Notes under the pieces: model-generated
The model's database searches: none
The model's input: the letters and a program-made list of their open reading frames with translations, nothing else
Told to the model about the DNA's origin: nothing
NCBI GenBank assembly: GCA_031416075.1
Contig: JANOSY010000009.1
Location: 1 to 46,983, forward strand
DNA from: Candidatus Tenderia sp.
GTDB taxonomy: Bacteria; Pseudomonadota; Gammaproteobacteria; Tenderiales; Tenderiaceae
Direction of reading: 5' to 3'
DNA length: 46,983 nt
In this document: one piece after another, positions 12,818 to 23,194 of the stretch
Layout of the letters: every line of letters begins with the position of its first letter
How positions within the stretch are numbered: position 1 is the first letter of the stretch
Program-made: the position numbers and the translations under genes

Positions 12818-14014
12818 ATGATCATTGAGCCAAAGACCCGTGGGTTTATCTGTACCACCGCTCACCCGGTGGGGTGTGCCGCCAATGTTGCAGAACAGAT
12901 TAACAAGGTAAAGGCTGGGGGCACTATTGTTAATGGTCCCAAAAACGTATTGGTGATCGGTGCCTCTACCGGCTACGGTCTGGCATCACGTATTACCGCA
13001 GCCTTTGGCGCGGGTGCGGCAACCATTGGTGTGTTTTTGGAGAAGCCTGCGACAGATAAAAAATCGGGTTCAGCCGGTTGGTATAACTCTGCCGCTTTTG
13101 AGCAGAGGGCTCACGATGCCGGACTCTATGCCAGGAGTGTTAATGGTGATGCCTTCTCCAATGAGGTGCGCGCCAAGGTCATTGAGATGATAAAGGCGGA
13201 CCTGGGCAAGATCGATCTGGTGGTCTACTCACTTGCTTCTCCCGTACGCAAAATGCCCGAGAGTGGTGAAGTGGTGCGTTCAGTGCTCAAGCCGATTGGT
13301 GATGTCTATCGTGCTATTGCGATTGACACTAACAAAGATCAGATTATTAACGCTGAAATTCCACCTGCCACAGAAGAGGAGATTGCCAATACGGTGACAG
13401 TGATGGGCGGGGAGGATTGGGAGCTGTGGATGGGCGCGCTGTTAGACGCCGGAGTGCTGGCGGAGGGTGTAAAGACCGTTTCGTACAGTTATATTGGCAC
13501 CGAAATTACCTGGCCGATCTACTGGCATGGTGCGCTGGGCAAGGCAAAAGAGGATATGGACCGTGCCGCAGCTGCTATCCGCAAGTCGCTCGCACCGTTA
13601 AACGGCAGCGCCAATGTGGCGGTATTGAAGAGTGTGGTGACACAGGCATCGGCGGCGATACCGGTCATGCCGCTCTACATCTCAATCTGCTTCAAAGTGA
13701 TGAAACAGAAAAATATTCATGAAGGGTGCCTGGAACAGATCGACCGTCTGTTCCGTAGCAGCCTCTACGCGACAGGCAATGCCATGCTGGATGAACAGCA
13801 GCGGATTCGTATGGACGACTGGGAGCTGCGTGATGAGGTGCAAAACAGCGTGAAGCAGCTGTGGCCAACCGTGACCACAGAAAACCTGTTTGAGTTGACC
13901 GACTATCAAGGTTATAAAAATGAGTTTCTGAAACTGTTTGGTTTTGGTTTCAGTGATATCAATTACCAGGCCGATGTGGATACTCTGGTGGCGTTTGAGC
14001 CGGTTACCCTCTGA
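12818..14014 (+). CDS. fabV: Enoyl-ACP reductase / trans-2-enoyl-CoA reductase FabV
   Basis: [40 protein letters not shown] and C-terminal LFGF. Confidence 0.96.
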
Positions 14015-14083
14015 GTTGGTTATGTAGAAGCGTAGGTTCAACCCGTTACTACCACCGATTGAATCTGCGCTGTTTGCGTAACC

Positions 14084-14090
14084 GATTAGG
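14084..14090. repeat. Left target-site duplication GATTAGG
   Basis: An identical 7-mer lies immediately outside the right terminal repeat (19195-19201). Confidence 0.88.
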
Positions 14091-14126
14091 TGTAGTAGTT
14101 CAGACTTGATATGACAGATGGTGTCA
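14091..14126 (+). repeat. Left terminal inverted repeat
   Basis: Pairs with 19159-19194. Confidence 0.9.
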
Positions 14127-14177
14127 GATGTTTTTTGTCACAAATGAGTGAATCCAACCTATTCGAGATAGGACAGG

Positions 14178-14202
14178 TGGCTGTTGTTGACCCGAAGCGG
14201 AC
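14178..14202. other. Putative left hybrid recombination site (TGGCTGTTGT-TGACCC-GAAGCGGAC)
   Basis: GAAGCGGAC (14194-14202) is the exact reverse complement of GTCCGCTTC (19125-19133) at the other end of avs4. Confidence 0.55.
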
Positions 14203-14273
14203 TTTATTCTTCAGCCCAATATAAACCTGTTTTTCGCAGCCAAGGGTAACAAACATACCTAGAGAAAGATTAA

Positions 14274-17200
14274 GTGATTAAGCCAAACTGGGATAATTTT
14301 AAAGCTAAGTTCAACGAAAATCCTCAAATGAATTTTGAGTGGTTATGCTACTCGCTGTTCTGCCAAGAATTCAAAATTCCCGCTGGTATTTTTAGATATA
14401 AAAATCAGTCTGGACTAGAGACCAATCCGATTACTACGGAGGATGAAGTAATCGGTTGGCAAGCAAAATTCTATGACACGAAGTTGTCGGATAATAAGGC
14501 TGACCTGATAGGAATGATTGAAAAAAGCAAGAATGCTTATTCAAGTTTGACCAAGATCATCTTCTACACCAATCAGGAGTGGGGGCAGGGAAAGAAGGTC
14601 AGAGATTCTAAGGCCAAAAAAGAAACTGATCAAAAAGCAAAAGGTAGCGAGAGTAGTAACGATTCCAAAATCAAGAAGGAAGTCGACCAGAAAGCGAAGG
14701 AATCCGGCATTGAAATAGTATGGAGAGGGGCTAGTTTTTTCGAATCGCCGCTTGTAACGGTCGAGAATGAAAATATCGCAAAGCACTTCTTCTGCCCTGA
14801 TAAAAGCATCTTTGACTTACTGGAAGAGAAGCAGAGACACGCGGAGAATGTGTTGCATGAAATTCAAACCGATATGGATTTCAACGACAAAAAGATTGAG
14901 ATAGACAGATATGATCTCTTGGATCGCCTACGTGAAAACTTGGATAAAAAACAGATTCTCATCGTAAGCGGTGTAGGGGGCGTTGGGAAAACAGCGGTTA
15001 TCAAGAAATTTCGTGAAAAAGAGGAAGGCAGTATTCCTTTTTATGTCTTTAAGGCTAGCGAATTCAACATGGATAGCATTAATGACCTGTTTAAGGAATA
15101 TAGCTTAGAGAGTTTTTCAGATGCTCACCGAGAGGAAACACACAAGGTCGTTGTCGTTGATTCCGCTGAAAAACTATTGGACTTGACCAACACCGATCCT
15201 TTCAAGGAATTCCTAACGGTTTTACTAAAAGATAATTGGAAGATCATTTTCACCACTCGAAACAACTATTTGGCAGACTTGATTTATGATTTTATTGATA
15301 TCTATAAGATTAGGCCGGGCAATTTCGGCATAAGCAATTTAGATCAGAAAGAGTTGGCGGCAATAGCACATACCAATGGTTTCAACCTTCCGGAAGACGT
15401 TAAGTTGTTGGAGCTAATCACGAATCCTTTTTATCTGAGCGAATATCTGAGGTTCTATACAAGTGAGACTATCGACTATGTGAACTTCAAAGAGAAGCTG
15501 TGGAGTAGGATAATCGTCAAAACGAACCCAGCTAGGGAACAATGTTTCTTAGCAACCGCTTTTCAGAGGGCCAGTGAGGGCCAATTTTTTGTCATCCCGG
15601 CCTGTAATGCGCAAAATTTAGATACATTAGTCAAGGACGGAGTTCTGGGTTATGAGACAGCCGGCTACTTTATTACGCATGACATTTATGAGGAATGGGC
15701 ATTAGAAAAGAAGATTGCCGTCGATTACATGCGCAAGGCGAACAACAAAGAGTTCTTCGAACTGATCGGTGAGTCGCTACCGATCCGCCGCAGTTTCCGG
15801 ACTTGGGTATCAGAACGTTTGCTGTTGGATGACCAGTCCATAAGGCAATTTAGTGCGGAAATTGTCCAGGGAGATGACATCTCCAAATTTTGGAAAGACG
15901 AGCTATGGATATCTGTCCTGCTTTCCGATCATTCAGGGACATTTTTTGAATTGTTCAAGGGAGATCTGCTTGACAACGATCAGAAGTTATTAAAAAGACT
16001 GACATTCCTGCTGCGACTGGCTTGCATGGAAGTTGACTACGACATCCTCAAACGATTAGGAGTCAGCGACTCGAATCTGCTTTCCATCAAATACGTGCTG
16101 ACCAAGCCAAAGGGAATGGGCTGGCAGAGCGCGATCCGTTTCATCTATGACAATCTAGACGGGATAGGTGTAAAAAATATCCACTTCGTACTGCCGGTGA
16201 TCCATGAATGGAACCAGAAGGTCAAAAAGGGAGAGACGACTCGATTATCTAGCCTGATAGCTCTCAAGTATTATCAATGGACCATTGAAGAGGATGTCTA
16301 TTTGTCTCGTGGAGACGATAAAGAAAATCTTTTGCAAACGATCCTCCATGGGGCTGCCATGATTAAACCTGAATTTGAGGGGGTTTTCGGAGAGGTTTTG
16401 AAAAACAGATGGAACAACCATCGAGCCCCCTATTACGATTTGATGAAAGCAATCCTGACCGACATGGATGCTCAGCCTGTCTGGATAACTCTTCCTGAAT
16501 ATGTCTTACAGGTGGCCGATCTGTTCTGGTATCGTCCGCCTCAAGAAAAAGGAGATCGTTACAGCCGGATGGATGTCGAAGATGAGTTCGGTCTCAGTAA
16601 ATCCCATCACGATTACTTCCCCGAAAGTCCGTATCAGACCCCCATCTATTGGCTACTACAGTCAGAGCTAAAAAAAACCATTGATTTCATTCTAGATTTT
16701 ACGAATAAGACAACAAAATGTTTTGCTCACTCGCGCTTTGCGAAAAATGAAATTGAAGAGGTTGACGTATTTATCGAAGAGGGTAAGTTTGTCAAACAAT
16801 ATATATGCAACCGGCTATGGTGTTCGTATCGAGGAACACAGGTTTCCACCCATCTGCTTTCGTCTATTCACATGGCCTTAGAAAAGTTTTTCCTTGAGCA
16901 CTGGAAAGATGTGGATTCTAAAATATTGGAAAGTTGGCTTCTCTATCTACTGCGTAATTCCAAATCAGCCTCCATTTCAGCGGTGGTGACGAGTATTGTC
17001 ATGGCCTACTCGGAGAAGACGTTCAATGTCGCTAAAGTACTTTTCCAAACAAAAGATTTCTTCGTTTTTGACATGAATAGATTGATTCTCGACCAATCGC
17101 AAAAGAGCTCACTTATCTCATTGAGGGATGGTTTCGGAGGTCCAAGTTACAATAATGATCTCCATGAAGAAGACAGAATAAAGGCTTGTGATGATCCGCA

Positions 17201-19037
17201 CAGAAAGAATTGTCTTGAGCACCTTGCTTTGAGTTACCAGTTTTTCAAAAGCGAAGGTGTAAGTGAGGAAGATGTTAAGGAAAGACAGCAGGCGCTCTGG
17301 GATATCTTTGACACATACTACAGTCAGCTACCGGATGAGGCCCAAGAGACTAAGGCTGACAAGACGTGGAGGTTCTTCTTGGCTCGGATGGACCGGCGGA
17401 AGATGAAGGTTACCACTGAAGAGAAAGAAGGGGGGATCGAGATATCTTTCAATCCTGAAATTGATCCTAAACTCAAGGAGTACAGCGAAGCGGCCCTCAA
17501 GAAGAGTTTTGAGCCGATGAGATACACTTCGCTGAAGTTATGGGCAAGCTATAAAAAGGACAAAGACGAACGCTACAAGCAGTATGGACAGTACGAGAAC
17601 AACCTTCAACTTGTTTTAAAAGAAACCAAGGAAATAATAGACAGGTTTAATGAGGGTGCAGATGAAAGTTTCCGTCTTTTCAATGGTGCTATACCAGCAG
17701 ATGTTTGCTCCATTTTGCTCATAGAGCATTTCAACCAGCTCTCCGAAGAAGAGAGGGACTACTGTAAAGATATCATCTTGGAGTATTCGCAGATTCCCCT
17801 GAAGCCTCATTACCGATACCAGATATCAGACGGAACTACGTCGGCTATTTCAGCCCTGCCAGTAGTGTTCAAGAACTATCCAATGGATAGGGAAATCGTC
17901 AAAGTAATTTTACTCCTAACCCTGTTTGATGATTACCCTGTCGGCATGGGAGGAGGCAGTTACTCCGTCTTTCCCAGCATGGCGATTCATAAATTATGGG
18001 ACGACCATTTTGATGATATGCAGTCTCTGCTAATTGGATATTTGATGTTTAAGCCAAAATACGAAGGGTTGAGGGAAAAACTACGTCAGGAGAGCTACGA
18101 AAAAGGAGTCTATGAGATTGACGAACAAAAGTTCAACGAGAATTTCTTCAATGAATATGAGCAAGGCCTGCAAAAGATCATCGAGAATACAATCTCCATA
18201 AATGATTTAAAGGATATGGAGCATACTGATCTATATATCTTAAACACGGGCTTTCAGTTGATTCCCATGAAGACGTCTAATGCTGTACATAAACAGCTGA
18301 TGTTGTCCATAGTCGCCATTTTTTCAACCAATCTATTATCCCGTGACGGGGAAGATAAAGTTGATTACTCCGTCCGCCATGCCTTCTTGGAGAAATTAGC
18401 TTATTCTGTACTAAATGCTTCCGAGCAGGATATTCCCGATTATTTGAAACCGTTTCTTGATGGTTTCAACGGTTCAGAGTCGATCGCGGATTTGTTCGAG
18501 AAATTTATTTCGGCTGAAGATCGATTGGATACTTATGATAAGTTCTGGCAAGTCTGGAGCTTATTTTTCGAGAAGATGGTTGCCCAGGGCAAGGATGGGG
18601 ATGGGCGCTGGTATACGGGAAAGATCATCAAGAGTTATCTGTTTGCGCAAAGCCCTTGGAAAGAAACAGCCACCGATTGGCACTCATTCAAAGATAGCAA
18701 CAGCCGTTTCTTCGCTGAAGTCGCCAAGAATATAGGTCATTGCCCCTCAACTTTGTATTCTCTGGCCAAATCTTTGAATAACGTAGCCAGTCGGTATCTT
18801 AATCCCGGCATAGCGTGGCTTTCTGGAATGTTGGCTTGTAACAAAGAATTATGGACAGCCAAACTGGAAGCCGACACTATTTATTACCTCGAAAGTCTGG
18901 TCAGGAAGTACATCTACAAAGAGCGTGAAAGAATTCGAAGGACAAAACAGTTGAAAGAAGAGGTCTTAGTAATATTGGAGTTCTTGGTTGAGAAAGGATC
19001 GGTTGTGGGTTATATGTCACGGGAGAATATTCTGTGA
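14274..19037 (+). CDS. avs4: AVAST type 4 anti-phage protein Avs4 (Mrr-like nuclease, STAND ATPase, helical/TPR sensor)
   Basis: 1587 aa. The N-terminus MIKPNWDNFKAKFNENPQ..FEWLCY..FRYKNQSGLET..IGWQAKFY matches E. coli Avs4 as I recall it (E49, Q63-x-K65). Walker A GVGGVGKT, Walker B VVVVDSAE, C-terminus GSVVGYMSRENIL. AT-richer than the flanks. Confidence 0.93.
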   Translation: MIKPNWDNFKAKFNENPQMNFEWLCYSLFCQEFKIPAGIFRYKNQSGLETNPITTEDEVIGWQAKFYDTKLSDNKADLIGMIEKSKNAYSSLTKIIFYTNQEWGQGKKVRDSKAKKETDQKAKGSESSNDSKIKKEVDQKAKESGIEIVWRGASFFESPLVTVENENIAKHFFCPDKSIFDLLEEKQRHAENVLHEIQTDMDFNDKKIEIDRYDLLDRLRENLDKKQILIVSGVGGVGKTAVIKKFREKEEGSIPFYVFKASEFNMDSINDLFKEYSLESFSDAHREETHKVVVVDSAEKLLDLTNTDPFKEFLTVLLKDNWKIIFTTRNNYLADLIYDFIDIYKIRPGNFGISNLDQKELAAIAHTNGFNLPEDVKLLELITNPFYLSEYLRFYTSETIDYVNFKEKLWSRIIVKTNPAREQCFLATAFQRASEGQFFVIPACNAQNLDTLVKDGVLGYETAGYFITHDIYEEWALEKKIAVDYMRKANNKEFFELIGESLPIRRSFRTWVSERLLLDDQSIRQFSAEIVQGDDISKFWKDELWISVLLSDHSGTFFELFKGDLLDNDQKLLKRLTFLLRLACMEVDYDILKRLGVSDSNLLSIKYVLTKPKGMGWQSAIRFIYDNLDGIGVKNIHFVLPVIHEWNQKVKKGETTRLSSLIALKYYQWTIEEDVYLSRGDDKENLLQTILHGAAMIKPEFEGVFGEVLKNRWNNHRAPYYDLMKAILTDMDAQPVWITLPEYVLQVADLFWYRPPQEKGDRYSRMDVEDEFGLSKSHHDYFPESPYQTPIYWLLQSELKKTIDFILDFTNKTTKCFAHSRFAKNEIEEVDVFIEEGKFVKQYICNRLWCSYRGTQVSTHLLSSIHMALEKFFLEHWKDVDSKILESWLLYLLRNSKSASISAVVTSIVMAYSEKTFNVAKVLFQTKDFFVFDMNRLILDQSQKSSLISLRDGFGGPSYNNDLHEEDRIKACDDPHRKNCLEHLALSYQFFKSEGVSEEDVKERQQALWDIFDTYYSQLPDEAQETKADKTWRFFLARMDRRKMKVTTEEKEGGIEISFNPEIDPKLKEYSEAALKKSFEPMRYTSLKLWASYKKDKDERYKQYGQYENNLQLVLKETKEIIDRFNEGADESFRLFNGAIPADVCSILLIEHFNQLSEEERDYCKDIILEYSQIPLKPHYRYQISDGTTSAISALPVVFKNYPMDREIVKVILLLTLFDDYPVGMGGGSYSVFPSMAIHKLWDDHFDDMQSLLIGYLMFKPKYEGLREKLRQESYEKGVYEIDEQKFNENFFNEYEQGLQKIIENTISINDLKDMEHTDLYILNTGFQLIPMKTSNAVHKQLMLSIVAIFSTNLLSRDGEDKVDYSVRHAFLEKLAYSVLNASEQDIPDYLKPFLDGFNGSESIADLFEKFISAEDRLDTYDKFWQVWSLFFEKMVAQGKDGDGRWYTGKIIKSYLFAQSPWKETATDWHSFKDSNSRFFAEVAKNIGHCPSTLYSLAKSLNNVASRYLNPGIAWLSGMLACNKELWTAKLEADTIYYLESLVRKYIYKERERIRRTKQLKEEVLVILEFLVEKGSVVGYMSRENIL

Positions 19038-19124
19038 TGCTAAGAATCAGCAGTATCCCACGAACAAGCACCATCAAAATAAAATGGAGGCAATAGTGGC
19101 ATTAATCTTCAGTTTATGTTGAAT

Positions 19125-19149
19125 GTCCGCTTCTGGCCGTACCCCGCCA
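19125..19149. other. Putative right hybrid recombination site (GTCCGCTTC-TGGCCG-TACCCCGCCA)
   Basis: The inner arm is complementary to 14194-14202. The 6-bp spacer TGGCCG resembles TGACCC, and the outer arm ends GCCA, complementary to TGGC at 14178. Confidence 0.55.
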
Positions 19150-19158
19150 TTCGAGATA

Positions 19159-19194
19159 TGACACAGCCTGTCAGGTCAAGTCTTAACTACTACA
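19159..19194 (-). repeat. Right terminal inverted repeat
   Basis: TGACACAGCCTGTCAGGTCAAGTCTTAACTACTACA, the inverted copy of 14091-14126. Confidence 0.9.
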
Positions 19195-19201
19195 GATTAG
19201 G
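19195..19201. repeat. Right target-site duplication GATTAGG
   Basis: Identical to 14084-14090. Confidence 0.88.
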
Positions 19202-19221
19202 CGAGTTGTGGTTCCGGCTCT

Positions 19222-19647
19222 CTACGCCAGTTTTTTCAGCTTACGCAGATACTCTTTTTCATCCGGCGCGGTACCGCTGCGCTGTGCCTGCCACATCATC
19301 TCCGCCAGACACTCCATCATCTGATGTTCTGCTTTATGCGGATCACCACACTGTTTAACAACCTTGCCATAGACTTCACGAATGCCATCAGGGCGATTAG
19401 TGCCCAGCTGTTCGTGAATGGCGATGTGCATCCCCATGTGCATAAAGGGGTTGGTGGCGCCCATCTCGGGTAGGTATTCACGGCCGAGTGCGGTGTCGCT
19501 ATCGATCAGTACTGACTGGTATTCAGGGTGCTGGCTGATGGTGTCGACGATGATCTTTTCCAGCGGTTCGAGCGGCTGATTATTTTGGGCCTTTTTCCAT
19601 GCATCGATATAGTATTGACGGAGGGAGTTGCGGTCATTGCCAAACAT
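19222..19647 (-). CDS. DUF1841-family protein
   Basis: MF...R..LRQYY.DAW.K, HPEY, NPFMHMGMHIAIHEQL and H.AEH.MMECL.EMMW; commonly found after nth. Confidence 0.88.
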   Translation of the reverse strand: MFGNDRNSLRQYYIDAWKKAQNNQPLEPLEKIIVDTISQHPEYQSVLIDSDTALGREYLPEMGATNPFMHMGMHIAIHEQLGTNRPDGIREVYGKVVKQCGDPHKAEHQMMECLAEMMWQAQRSGTAPDEKEYLRKLKKLA

Positions 19648-19648
19648 G

Positions 19649-20284
19649 TTAGTTATAAACCTTGTCTTTGAATTCGCACAGGTCCTCAATTATACACGCT
19701 TCGCACCTAGGTTTACGTGCAATGCAAACGTAACGCCCGTGCAATATTAACCAGTGATGAGCATTCAGTAGATATTCTTTGGGAATAAATCTTAACAGAC
19801 CCAGCTCGACCTCCAGCACATTTTTTCCTGGCGCAATTTTTGTGCGATTGGATATGCGAAAAATATGTGTATCTACAGCCAATGTTGGCTGTCCAAACGC
19901 AGTATTAAGAATAACATTAGCAGTTTTTCGACCGACACCAGGTAGTTTTTCTAATGCTTCACGGGTTTGGGGTATAACACTATGGTGTTCCTTGATCAGG
20001 ATTGTGCAGGTCTTGATCAGGTTTTCGGCTTTTGTATTAAACAGGCCAATAGTTTTAATGTACTGCTTTAACTCTTCAACGCCTAACGCCAGAATAGACT
20101 CTGGTGTATTTGCAACAGGGAAGAGTTTTGACGTTGCTTTATTTACCCCCTTATCTGTTGCCTGGGCTGATAGTAGCACAGCAACTAAAAGCTCGAATGG
20201 GGTAGTGTAGTTTAGTTCGGTGGTTGGGGCGGGGTTCTCTGCTTGTAGACGGCGAAAAATTTCAGTGCGTTTTTCTCTATTCAT
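19649..20284 (-). CDS. nth: Endonuclease III
   Basis: LLSAQATD, HhH motif LPGVGRKTA, AVDTH and the 4Fe-4S motif CIARKPRCEACIIEDLC. Confidence 0.98.
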   Translation of the reverse strand: MNREKRTEIFRRLQAENPAPTTELNYTTPFELLVAVLLSAQATDKGVNKATSKLFPVANTPESILALGVEELKQYIKTIGLFNTKAENLIKTCTILIKEHHSVIPQTREALEKLPGVGRKTANVILNTAFGQPTLAVDTHIFRISNRTKIAPGKNVLEVELGLLRFIPKEYLLNAHHWLILHGRYVCIARKPRCEACIIEDLCEFKDKVYN

Positions 20285-20371: not shown

Positions 20372-22789
20372 TTAGTTATTGGCAGAGGTTCGCTGATGTA
20401 ATGTGTTTATTATGGTATCTATTGCACGCTCGAATAGTGGCAGGGTCTCGATTGGTGAAGCTTGGTTGCTTCTGAAAAGTGCGGCCAGTTCGTTAAAAGA
20501 GAATTCGGCTACTACTTTGAATTTCCAATTGGTGAAACTACACTCACCTAAATAGTCGCTCTTCCATACCATGCGCAAATGCTGATTTTTTCCATCTTTA
20601 TTGGTAATATTAAGCCATTGTCCCATTTTTAATTCTAATGTTTGTTGCCAAAATTTATCGTCAACCAGTGGCTCAACCTTTTTATGTGGTGTGGTGGTAA
20701 TGGTGATTTCATCAGTCTCTTCACTGGTGCCATTAGTATCAAAGGTCTTATGCATGCTTGTTATGGTTACAACGTCATCTATGTCGAGAATTGGCGTATT
20801 TAACATCTCTTCTAGTTTATTCATTTTATTAAGTTGAATCTGCATTTCAGTAAGAGCGGTATCGATTTCATTTATTTCATGTGCTTCTGACGAGGTTGCA
20901 TGGCCACATTTGATGTGGACTCTGTTTTTGGAAACAGGGATGTTTTCACCGCGCATGCTTGCTATATGACACTCTTCTAAACCAGATAGAAGATCATCCA
21001 TATCTTTTTTATCTAAATTGATGGAGCTTAAACCATCTTGCAATGTTATTAAAAGTTCAAGAAGGATATTGGCGAGACTTTTCTTGTCGGATTCCGTTTT
21101 TTTTGGCTCTATAGACCAAATCAAAAGATCAATAAACCGAAGTTGCTCTTTCCATAGGGCGCTATCATCACTACCATTTAAGTAAGTATTCACCATGACT
21201 TGTCGCCATGGTCCGGAGATTATCTCGTATACAGGTTTTGGGATTTCTTTATCTTTTATTCGACTGGCAATACACTCCATTACCCAGGCGTTGGTTAATT
21301 TGTGTTTTTCACGTGATTCGAATAGCTTCTGATTTTTATCTTGAGCCTTTTTGTCTTGATGAATGGATAAATTATAGAAGCGATCAAACTCTATAATAAG
21401 ATCATCGAACAAATTTAAGTTATCGTTAAAACTATTTGTTATCCGACTAACAATGTAATCTATTTTTTGTAATAGAGGGCTGCTTTCTATGCGAGTGTCA
21501 TCATCGACGCCTATGGCGGCTTGTGCCATTTTATTTAGTAATTGGCGTGCGGGATGCTGTTTTTTGCTAAAGAACTCATTGTCACTAATGGCTACTTTTA
21601 GAATAGGTATCTGTAATCTTGAAAGAAGTGCTTTTGCTATGGATGATAGATTTTTGTCATCGAGTATGAAATCAAAAATCATTGCCACAATATCGATAAT
21701 TTCATTATCAATAGTGCTGACAAGATTTAACTTTCCATTTGATATTGACGTTTTTATTTCTAATGAAAGAGCCTCTTTTAACTGTTCTATGGATTCAAAT
21801 GCCCCAAATCTGGAGTCCCGCATTTGAATTGACGATAATGCATTGACAATATCTATAGGGTCTATATGCGGCACGGAAGTATTGTTGTTTGTATTGTATC
21901 CGGAGGATATTATCTGCTTGTTTGTTAGTAAGTTTTGTAGCGTCCCAATGAGTTTCTCATCGTTGATGTGATTGTAACCAGCCCCATTGTCCAGGGATTG
22001 TGATGTGGGTGATGGCGTGGGTGAAAAAGAACCATCTTTATGGTGTTCTAATGGGTATGATCGGTCACTTCTTCTCGCCTGAGATAGTGGTCTTATGGCC
22101 ATTTTTAGATGTGGAAGCACATCTGATTTTATGAAAAGAATATTGACCTCTTCATAGAGATGAGAAGTGTTTGATGTGACATATTTATCATACAATTTAT
22201 AGATGATCAGTTTTATACTGGTTTCTACATTAAAATTCTTTATAGATTCACGAAATGCTTCACAAATTTCCTTAGGTGATAGTGGTAGATCTTCCATGTG
22301 GATAGCTTTGGTCGGATCTAATGCAGAGAATCGTTGTTCAATGGCATATAGCTCCCGAGCAAGTCGATTGTTGACTTTGGCGACAGTAGAGCTAACAGCT
22401 AATGACTCCTCCAGGTCAGACTCATTGACTAATGACATAGAATCTATGCTCTTGTGCTCACTCGCAGTTGAAACGTTATGATTTTCTGGCTTAAGGAGTT
22501 TTTTGAATCCGGTTTCGATATATTGGCTGAATCTGTTTTCAATAACTTCTCGTTGCATACGTAATTCGCGCATAGCATCAAAATAGCTGCTTTGGAGTAC
22601 GTTGCTTTCTGCTTTATCGGCAAGCTCAAACAGTGTGTCGTCGGCATTATCCAGCATGCGTTTAAGAAGTGTTGATAAATAACGCAACGTAATTGTGCGT
22701 GTTTCATCAATCAACAAATGATATTTTTTTCGATCACTTTCTGATGTTAAAGAGTTTAGAGGGACCACGTTGTTATCGTGAAGGGCCAT
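20372..22789 (-). CDS. DUF1631-family protein
   Basis: DDTLFELADKA..YFDAMRELR, LSRLQIPILKVA..FF....HPARQLLN, C-terminal GQW and PLFERA; 805 aa, AT-rich. Confidence 0.85.
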   Translation of the reverse strand: MALHDNNVVPLNSLTSESDRKKYHLLIDETRTITLRYLSTLLKRMLDNADDTLFELADKAESNVLQSSYFDAMRELRMQREVIENRFSQYIETGFKKLLKPENHNVSTASEHKSIDSMSLVNESDLEESLAVSSTVAKVNNRLARELYAIEQRFSALDPTKAIHMEDLPLSPKEICEAFRESIKNFNVETSIKLIIYKLYDKYVTSNTSHLYEEVNILFIKSDVLPHLKMAIRPLSQARRSDRSYPLEHHKDGSFSPTPSPTSQSLDNGAGYNHINDEKLIGTLQNLLTNKQIISSGYNTNNNTSVPHIDPIDIVNALSSIQMRDSRFGAFESIEQLKEALSLEIKTSISNGKLNLVSTIDNEIIDIVAMIFDFILDDKNLSSIAKALLSRLQIPILKVAISDNEFFSKKQHPARQLLNKMAQAAIGVDDDTRIESSPLLQKIDYIVSRITNSFNDNLNLFDDLIIEFDRFYNLSIHQDKKAQDKNQKLFESREKHKLTNAWVMECIASRIKDKEIPKPVYEIISGPWRQVMVNTYLNGSDDSALWKEQLRFIDLLIWSIEPKKTESDKKSLANILLELLITLQDGLSSINLDKKDMDDLLSGLEECHIASMRGENIPVSKNRVHIKCGHATSSEAHEINEIDTALTEMQIQLNKMNKLEEMLNTPILDIDDVVTITSMHKTFDTNGTSEETDEITITTTPHKKVEPLVDDKFWQQTLELKMGQWLNITNKDGKNQHLRMVWKSDYLGECSFTNWKFKVVAEFSFNELAALFRSNQASPIETLPLFERAIDTIINTLHQRTSANN

Positions 22790-22865
22790 ATTATGAGTTC
22801 GGTACTCCCATTTCGTTATGAATTAAAGATTTCTGATTATCATGTTAGATGGTATGTATGGTCAT

Positions 22866-22887
22866 AACTGTGATGTTCATCTCAATT
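22866..22887. promoter_or_regulatory. CRP/Vfr-like binding site upstream of the DUF1631 gene
   Basis: AACTGTGATGTTCATCTCAATT, i.e. TGTGA-N6-TCTCA, against the consensus AAATGTGA-N6-TCACATTT. Confidence 0.5.
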
Positions 22888-22936
22888 ATATGAGTACCAA
22901 TAGGGTGCTTTGGAGAAGTAGCAGCCATATATGATC

Positions 22937-22964
22937 ATATCGGCTCAATATTGAGGTGACTTGA
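22937..22964 (-). promoter_or_regulatory. Possible sigma-28 promoter for the DUF1631 gene
   Basis: Minus strand TCAAG-N15-GCCGATAT; the spacing is one base longer than canonical. Confidence 0.45.
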
Positions 22965-23194
22965 GTGATAGATGTTCTTGTTGAACGGCTCTTGCGGAGG
23001 GAGATTGTGACTGTAGATTGCATTTCATTATTTAACAGCATTGTAATTAATGCTGCTTTCCTTAATTTGCATTATAAAACATGTTGTTGTAACTATTTTG
23101 TTCTATTTTTTAGATCATATGAGATTGATTGTTGAACCTCGGGTCGTGATCGATGGCGTAGAATGCACCTTGTTAGGTATGCCTCTTGAGACGA

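Follow-up and report, generated by a model that had tools for sequence, protein, structure and literature searches.

How does a single-gene phage defence come to sit between two core genes when nothing travelling with it resembles a mobility gene? The question is raised by avs4 in a 46,983-bp stretch of DNA from Candidatus Tenderia sp. (GenBank assembly GCA_031416075.1, here G000; contig JANOSY010000009.1, positions 1 to 46,983), the whole of which we analysed and refer to as the window. Defence genes mostly move on self-sufficient elements: prophages, integrative elements and Tn7-like transposons. The avs4 gene of the window is instead enclosed in an element of 5104 bp (14091-19194) that ends in inverted repeats and encodes no transposase. 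We think it quite probable that this element is a mobile insertion cassette (MIC), a non-autonomous derivative of the IS481 family that carries avs4 as its passenger.

An intact avs4 gene between two inverted ends

The heptamer GATTAGG stands directly outside either end of the element, an intact 7-bp duplication, as a preliminary description of this DNA had proposed. In the window sequence the left tip reads TGTAGTAGTT and the right tip AACTACTACA, so that the element has both TGT...ACA tips and terminal inverted repeats. A repeat search delimits arms of 39 nt (14091-14129 and 19156-19194) that are 82% complementary, with 32 of 39 positions paired; over the outermost 36 nt, our recount agrees with the 30 of 36 given earlier for repeats enclosing 5104 bp. 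We found that a 19-nt terminus pattern occurs twice in the whole window, at the two element ends and mutually inverted. In shuffled sequence 0.01 matches are predicted, and none of 100 shuffles held two or more.

The two ends are of a single type: the terminus is followed by CAGnnnGTGTCA and then by an inner motif. The non-coding portions of the element measure 183 bp and 157 bp. The left end is about 42 nt longer than the right because of a segment at 14161-14183 that, compared by eye, appears to be an inward-facing partial end. The inner motif is not a genome-wide repeat, since a loose search of G000 gives 20 matches where 19.5 are expected.

Inside the ends there is a single long open reading frame (ORF), 14274-19037 on the plus strand, which encodes 1587 residues; the other ORFs of at least 60 aa encode 64-92 aa and are nested in avs4 or cross the right end. 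The earlier view that an intact avs4 is the only real ORF is borne out by three matches: the PADLOC Avs4 model PDLC02169 (2359.8 bits, model positions 1-1570 of 1570), the NCBIfam equivalog NF041815 (2107 bits against a cut-off of 1500, residues 5-1587), and the PDB chain 8dgf_A ("ATP-binding protein Avs4", also 1587 aa), which matches end to end with 2640 bits. No transposase, intact or decayed, was found inside the element in the ORF list, in a six-frame scan with the IS481 model or by tblastn, as expected from the first account of the locus.

The avs4 product is 72% identical to an E. coli plasmid Avs4 in a gapless alignment. It has a Walker A motif, GVGGVGKT, at residue 233, and the Avs4 layout of an N-terminal nuclease region, a STAND NTPase and a long C-terminal sensor; Pfam matches to nSTAND1 and nSTAND6 at residues 212-362 are weak and fall under the Pfam cut-offs. 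The N-terminus includes the stretch EDEVIGWQAKFY and aligns without gaps to both the EcAvs4 chain and the E. coli copy, with Q63 and K65, the putative catalytic residues of the Avs4 nuclease. EcAvs4 is activated by phage portal protein and protects against phage. By homology, the Avs4 of the window should be a STAND pattern-recognition receptor for phage portal protein, oligomerising to activate its N-terminal nuclease. Among 401 genomes sampled from the class, Avs4 was detected in one, that of the window itself. Neither a sigma-70-like promoter nor a terminator turned up in 13950-14400.

The ends resemble those of IS481-family insertion sequences

Matching termini are found on IS481-family insertion sequences (IS) in other phyla and classes. 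When aligned to both ends of an autonomous IS at locus L060, the left terminus of the avs4 element agrees at 24 of 26 positions and the right terminus at 23 of 26; ends in two further genomes (G144 and G120) match the left terminus at 25 of 26, and overall the ends of autonomous IS match the cassette termini at 22-25 of 26. The L060 transposase scores 279.7 bits on the IS481 model NF033577 (cut-off 224), and the plasmid records of Roseibium (L050) and Burkholderia glumae (L084) annotate their copies as "IS481 family transposase". The avs4 element and these three autonomous copies share a duplication length of 7 bp, and all four duplications are perfect. Passages of PMC10045372 describe TGT...ACA termini for IS481 relatives and target duplications of 2-15 bp, mostly 6, for IS481 members; a length of 7 bp fits this particular subgroup.

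Judged by their sequence, the ends of the avs4 element are IS481-family ends, in line with what had been suspected. The cue first offered for that assignment, a reading frame at the right end with the residues CQVKS*LL, is not evidence; the likeness lies in the terminal DNA, and we discount the cue because the stop codon of the L060 transposase sits 62 nt inside the IS end. The autonomous elements, which are about 1.2 kb long with TGTAG...CTACA termini, thus resemble the avs4 element in their outermost 26 nt and in duplication length, whereas they have a transposase and two dissimilar ends and the cassette has no transposase and two ends of one type.

We also observed IS481-type termini in other arrangements. 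On a Legionella geestiana plasmid (NZ_CP038272.1), a 44-bp palindromic mini-element (L085:1801-1844) is formed by a pair of such termini placed back to back (TGTAGTAGTTCAAAC...GTTTGAACTACTACA); it contains no gene and lacks a duplication. Two contigs of G144 (L054 on C35 and L055 on C14) hold tandem and nested arrays of termini, up to six per roughly 800 bp, with no transposase match.

The element occupies a core-genome spacer that is empty in a congener

Pfam verifies both genes flanking the element, fabV and a DUF1841 gene, and with them the intergenic location originally reported. Beyond the DUF1841 gene lie nth, a DUF1631 gene and the rnf operon; the insertion site is core genome. GC content is 0.38-0.46 within the element and 0.50-0.54 in the upstream flank. 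No tRNA or other RNA gene was found at the site, where no Rfam family scores above threshold. In G001, a member of the same genus whose flanks show 82-85% identity, a gap of about 60 bp without repeats separates fabV from the DUF1841 gene, which we read as the empty site. An empty interval, which had been suggested as something to look for in relatives, is present in G001, but the spacer there is too diverged to align or to show a single GATTAGG. Because the G001 site is empty, the repeats are not native to the spacer.

These data are consistent with the following course of events. An IS481-family DDE transposase supplied in trans would bind the termini of 26 nt, cleave at their TGT/ACA tips, and insert the element into the fabV-DUF1841 spacer at cuts staggered by 7 bp, generating the GATTAGG duplication. 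Insertion would have taken place in a common ancestor of G000 and its sister species G003, once G001 had branched off. Later, in at least one lineage, one cargo replaced another within the resident ends, leaving Avs4 in G000 and an HNH-STAND protein in G003, most likely by homologous recombination with a cassette of the same family in which the 70-115-bp end modules served as homology arms.

We compared contigs from four public sequencing runs with positions 13500-19800 of the window; such contigs drop rare variants, and many bins were uncovered. A contig from run X3, which belongs to another study, crosses the left junction with zero differences. In the four runs we found no empty-site contig of the window's species and no contig joint across the element, the latter having no bearing on excision since rare variants are dropped. 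A loose end at 19226 in run X2 resembles the G001-type spacer of a related species.

Two further congeners show different sequence at this interval, both at contig ends. In G004 (L023, C147:1-420) an unrelated sequence lies beside DUF1841, with what looks by eye like a hairpin of about 15 bp flanked by AACAAGG-type repeats, and in G002 (L024, C266) another sequence follows fabV. The fabV-DUF1841 interval may be an insertion hotspot. Farther downstream, GC content falls to 0.35-0.39 at 20500-23000, over the DUF1631 gene (20372-22789, minus strand) just past nth; despite its low GC this gene is common to G003, at least up to 21010.

Table 1. Features of the avs4 element and its flanks in the window, the other cassettes with the same end type, and related IS481-family insertion sequences.
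Feature	Position or location	Strand	Details
fabV (enoyl reductase), left flank outside the element	12818-14014	+	PF12241 3.3e-109, plus PF12242 and PF07055
Left target-site duplication GATTAGG	14084-14090		Identical to 19195-19201; same 7-mer at the same place in G003
Left terminal inverted repeat	14091-14129	+	Repeat search, 39 nt, 82%
IS481-type terminus TGTAGTAGTTCAGACTTGATATGACA	14091-14116	+	Outermost 26 nt of left repeat
Subterminal segment ATTCGAGATAGGACAGGTGGCTG	14161-14183	+	Direct-orientation repeat of right subterminal part 19149-19168; 14/16 over first 16 nt, by eye
Inner boundary motif GACCCGAAGCGGAC	14189-14202	+	Cargo starts and G003 homology stops here; repeat pair 14191-14205 / 19122-19136, 87%
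avs4, intact	14274-19037	+	1587 aa; ORF list, PADLOC, NCBIfam, PDB match
Inner boundary motif, inverted copy (GGCCAGAAGCGGAC on minus strand)	19125-19138	-	Same repeat pair; G003 homology restarts here
Right terminal inverted repeat	19156-19194	-	Minus-strand terminus TGTAGTAGTTAAGACTTGACCTGACA
Right target-site duplication GATTAGG	19195-19201		Direct read
DUF1841 gene, right flank outside the element	19222-19689	-	PF08897 4.2e-57
G000 cassette	fabV-DUF1841		Cargo Avs4
G003 cassette	Same site as G000		Cargo 950-aa HNH-STAND protein
G007 cassette	Between rhomboid and EamA genes		1050 bp; cargo DUF2971 protein, PADLOC PDC-S31 6.3e-27
G034 cassette	Inside predicted Mu-like prophage		Cargo HEPN_AbiU2 (1.2e-24) and MtlR-like ORF; outer right repeat missing
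Autonomous IS L050	Roseibium plasmid NZ_CP114790.1		1201 bp; duplication ACTGATC
Autonomous IS L060	G197:C24, another family of the same class		1200 bp; duplication CCTTATC
Autonomous IS L084	Burkholderia glumae plasmid NC_012723.1		1215 bp; duplication GCTCAAA
Frameshifted IS copy L058	G188		Duplication matches 6/7

Weighing the cassette reading

Several observations weigh against a cassette that transposed here with avs4 aboard, and we take them together. The first concern the enzyme. No protein of G000 passes the cut-off for an IS481-family transposase (best score 86.9 bits), tblastn of the whole G000 genome with a cognate-type transposase gives no match, and none of the 17 genomes of the family, which make up the whole order as sampled, has such a transposase past the cut-off. 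With respect to the ends, past nucleotide 26 those of the cassette resemble neither end of the autonomous IS, and we found no autonomous IS with cassette-type ends, tblastn across 23 loci being blank. With respect to distribution, elements with this end type occur in three of the 17 family genomes, one copy in each; the G007 element has no target duplication; no IS481-type repeats stand beside avs4 in the two E. coli loci that we inspected; and no second Avs4 cassette was found elsewhere with another duplication, so that its movement as a unit is putative. Finally, in G003 both GATTAGG copies and the same ends are present at the same site, where they enclose a 950-aa gene and no avs4. Either cargo may have come in with the transposition, and at least one of them did not.

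The missing enzyme has to be read against the quality of the genomes. They are drafts or metagenome-assembled genomes, which often drop repeats; G000 has no contig smaller than 2061 bp, so a lone 1.2-kb IS contig could be missing. Autonomous IS with near-identical termini do exist in another genome and on plasmids (L060, L050 and L084), but none was found in G000, where it had been suggested to look for one. Mobilisation in trans is not possible with the assembled content because no cognate transposase is assembled in G000 or in the family; given the draft assemblies, the avs4 element appears to be stranded at present.

Traces of the IS remain nonetheless in G000, where full element ends are unique and a fuzzy search adds three solo 20-nt IS-type termini. 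One (C84:17742, plus strand) has a truncated ORF of the IS6 family (DDE_Tnp_IS240) about 350 bp away, beside earP; another (C92:47518, plus strand) lies between a KAP NTPase gene and a gene cluster encoding type VI secretion system Tle1-like and DUF2931 proteins; the third (C93:51170, minus strand) is more diverged and lies beside mscL. Since those on C84 and C92 represent both IS end types, the IS was once present in the G000 lineage. G003 retains a remnant of 363 bp in which both ends persist and the first 50 transposase residues are still encoded. The remnant peptide is 82-92% identical to plasmid-encoded proteins, and PGAP names 12 of 15 among the matches listed "IS481 family transposase".

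The rve-type transposases of G000 were considered as cognate enzymes and rejected; by eye they read as IS3, IS30, IS630, IS6 and Mu/TnsB-like proteins, the IS6 fragment being the one also covered by a scan, and all score below the IS481 cut-off. Also on C93 (L019:11064-14029), a PAS-GGDEF-EAL protein appears split, with EAL profile positions 4-111 in one ORF and 119-235 in the next, likely through a frameshift or sequencing error.

One frame and two cargos in sister species

The sister species G003 has flanks 95.5-97% identical to those of G000, and Avs4 has no match in its genome. The 950-aa protein encoded within its frame combines an N-terminal HNH nuclease with a P-loop of STAND type, matches PADLOC PDC-M68A (4e-24) and HNH effector models, and gives weak Pfam matches to nSTAND3 and nSTAND5; its architecture is that of a further Avs-like receptor. 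We found that the two species agree at every position over about 200 nt of left junction and left end (13993-14192), and that identity collapses at the inner motif (14189-14202) and returns at its inverted copy (19125-19138). In the right repeat of G003, a 6-bp insertion has destroyed the conserved GACTTGA core, which suggests that the insertion there is old and decaying.

These data separate the history of the frame from that of its cargo, because G003 bears other cargo within the same ends and duplication. At least one cargo entered a frame that was already inserted, so the intact duplication cannot date the arrival of avs4. The preliminary description had taken the unmutated duplication as a sign of fairly recent insertion, a view we abandon: the insertion is common to two species whose flanks have diverged to 95.5-97% identity. 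It had also counted a relative with both repeats and both GATTAGG copies but no avs4 against transposition. G003 is literally such a relative, and the transposon reading survives it since the G001 site is empty.

The same observations open the main alternative, which we regard as a serious contender though we lean the other way: avs4 never transposed here, and instead replaced an earlier cargo in a resident IS481-type frame that acts as a fixed swap site for defence genes. Replacement would have occurred by homologous recombination or by an unknown cassette exchange at the inner motif. Different cargo inside one duplication and one pair of ends supports this account, and it agrees with a left end that is fully identical over about 200 nt beside flanks averaging 95.5-97%, with homology breaking off exactly at the motif on both sides. 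It also accords with the lack of a cognate transposase across the 17 family genomes and with the loss of the GACTTGA core in G003. In soil metagenome run X6, an avs4 about 96% identical is preceded directly by the same motif variant, ACCCGAAGCGGAC, and beyond it by different sequence; this is a single contig and 30 letters, and we treat it as a lead only. Against replacement, the order may be the reverse: if the original cargo was Avs4 and the G003 gene arrived later, then avs4 did come in by transposition. A swap also needs a donor cassette with matching ends, and none was found, each genome holding one element. In any case the resident frame complements the MIC reading, since the frame itself still requires transposition.

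Related cassettes and a shared inner motif

Including the two at the fabV-DUF1841 site, we identified four elements with the same end type, in which the terminus is followed by CAGnnnGTGTCA and the inner motif GRCCnnnAGCGGnC (Table 1). The cargo starts at the motif in all four, and in all four it is of defence type; the number is small, and two of the elements share one insertion.

Wider surveys added little. A scan of public genome contigs returned two stretches (L052 and L053), of which L053 shows one end alone, close to where its contig stops. A metagenome scan returned ten: eight have a single cassette-type terminus in a fuzzy search, L071 has a variant terminus, one (L073) has the inner motif, and a partner end was found at none of the ten. 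Their neighbours are mixed (GGDEF-EAL, PEP-CTERM, DUF2806, MtlR-like, other transposases), and PADLOC gives one weak match, to BrxA (8.6e-5). The metagenome loci neither support nor contradict a bias toward defence. A viral scan returned one contig, which agrees with the G034 locus in its end sequence, in the spacing of its motif and in its pattern of ORFs. Matches to the inner left end in G111 and G256, from a class-level search, have no terminus beside them and are probably chance. In G000 itself, a 31-nt stretch (C17:109087, minus strand) agrees at 25 of 31 positions with the inner right end and its boundary motif, again with no adjacent terminus; it may be a relic of another cassette.

A bolder interpretation, which we advance as speculative and rather unlikely, would make the 70-115-bp end modules a reusable frame for IS481-derived, transposase-less cassettes specialised for anti-phage cargo of one or two genes. 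Cargo would be swapped at GRCCnnnAGCGGnC, inverted at the two cargo boundaries, by a mechanism other than transposition, and the motif would be a new recombination or capture site, more than just the inward limit of an end bound by a transposase. The suggestion is drawn from the four elements above; if true, it would produce allele-like diversity of immune receptors at one chromosomal site.

E. coli avs4 appears to travel on a different vehicle

A homologue of avs4 with 74.6% DNA identity, confined to the gene, is present in 357 of 5426 E. coli genomes, on chromosomes and plasmids. We inspected two loci among the 372 matching records, L076 on plasmid pSJ_82 and L077 on a chromosome, and found the gene order alike: a site-specific integrase, two hypothetical genes, avs4, and an AbiGi-family gene. 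The shared five-gene block hints that the same defence gene moves there in another mobile unit. EcAvs4 (PDB 8DGF) and the avs4 of E. coli and Salmonella resemble the window's copy in length (1587 aa), full-length match, Walker A motif and equivalog model, and differ in vehicle, with an integrase alongside there and IS481-type repeats here. Because avs4 is rare in the class, and linked to an integrase without repeats in E. coli, we regard it as horizontally mobile on different vehicles in different hosts.

An integrase neighbour in E. coli, together with one site holding different cargo in two species, as at an attachment (att) site or integron, could suggest that the 7-bp repeats are an attachment-site core and that the cassette was moved by a tyrosine or serine recombinase encoded elsewhere. 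We consider this very improbable. No tRNA or RNA gene marks the site, Pfam scans of the neighbours show housekeeping genes (nth, DUF1631, rnf) and no recombinase, and the E. coli flanks have no such repeats. The related IS, moreover, are bordered by unrelated heptamers (ACTGATC, CCTTATC and GCTCAAA), as staggered cuts give and unlike an att core. That the repeats are a chance or native palindrome of the fabV-DUF1841 spacer with avs4 merely lying between them, for which one could cite their persistence without avs4 in G003, is next to inconceivable given the shuffles, the repeat-free G001 site, and the termini shared with IS481-family elements of other phyla and classes.

Known systems and significance

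Single defence genes also ride as exchangeable cargo of autonomous Tn7-like transposons and of integron cassettes, where they differ at one site. The avs4 frame is unlike either, in that it has no transposition genes, no integrase and no attC-type sites, just two IS481-type ends.

Closer parallels are found among MICs, a class described in passages of PMC3129680 as transposase-less units with IS-family inverted repeats and one or more passenger genes. MICs are defined by ISfinder/ISsaga, with examples in Aeromonas, where IncU plasmids carry a qnrS2 cassette, and in Xanthomonas, which has Tn3-type cassettes with effector genes (PMC3129680, PMC5444012 and PMC4337579). The avs4 element resembles these in having no transposase, IS repeats at both ends, a passenger, a target duplication and presumed activation in trans. 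It differs in its IS481-type ends, its anti-phage passenger, its conserved inner motif, and the differing cargo at one insertion in two species. In the library that we searched, we found no literature joining MICs with anti-phage genes. The element thus appears to be a recognisable member of a described class, apparently stranded, and the surprise it holds is moderate.

At this locus a whole immune receptor encoded by one gene, Avs4, is carried by a pair of IS481-type ends and no transposase, the smallest vehicle possible, and the STAND receptors of two sister species differ although their frame is inserted at one and the same nucleotide. Because nothing inside such a cassette resembles a mobility gene, annotation pipelines miss it. 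The locus also provides a testable pair of transposon ends and a cognate transposase for a little-studied IS family. If the arrangement is general, it would let single-gene defences be moved and exchanged cheaply within core-genome spacers.

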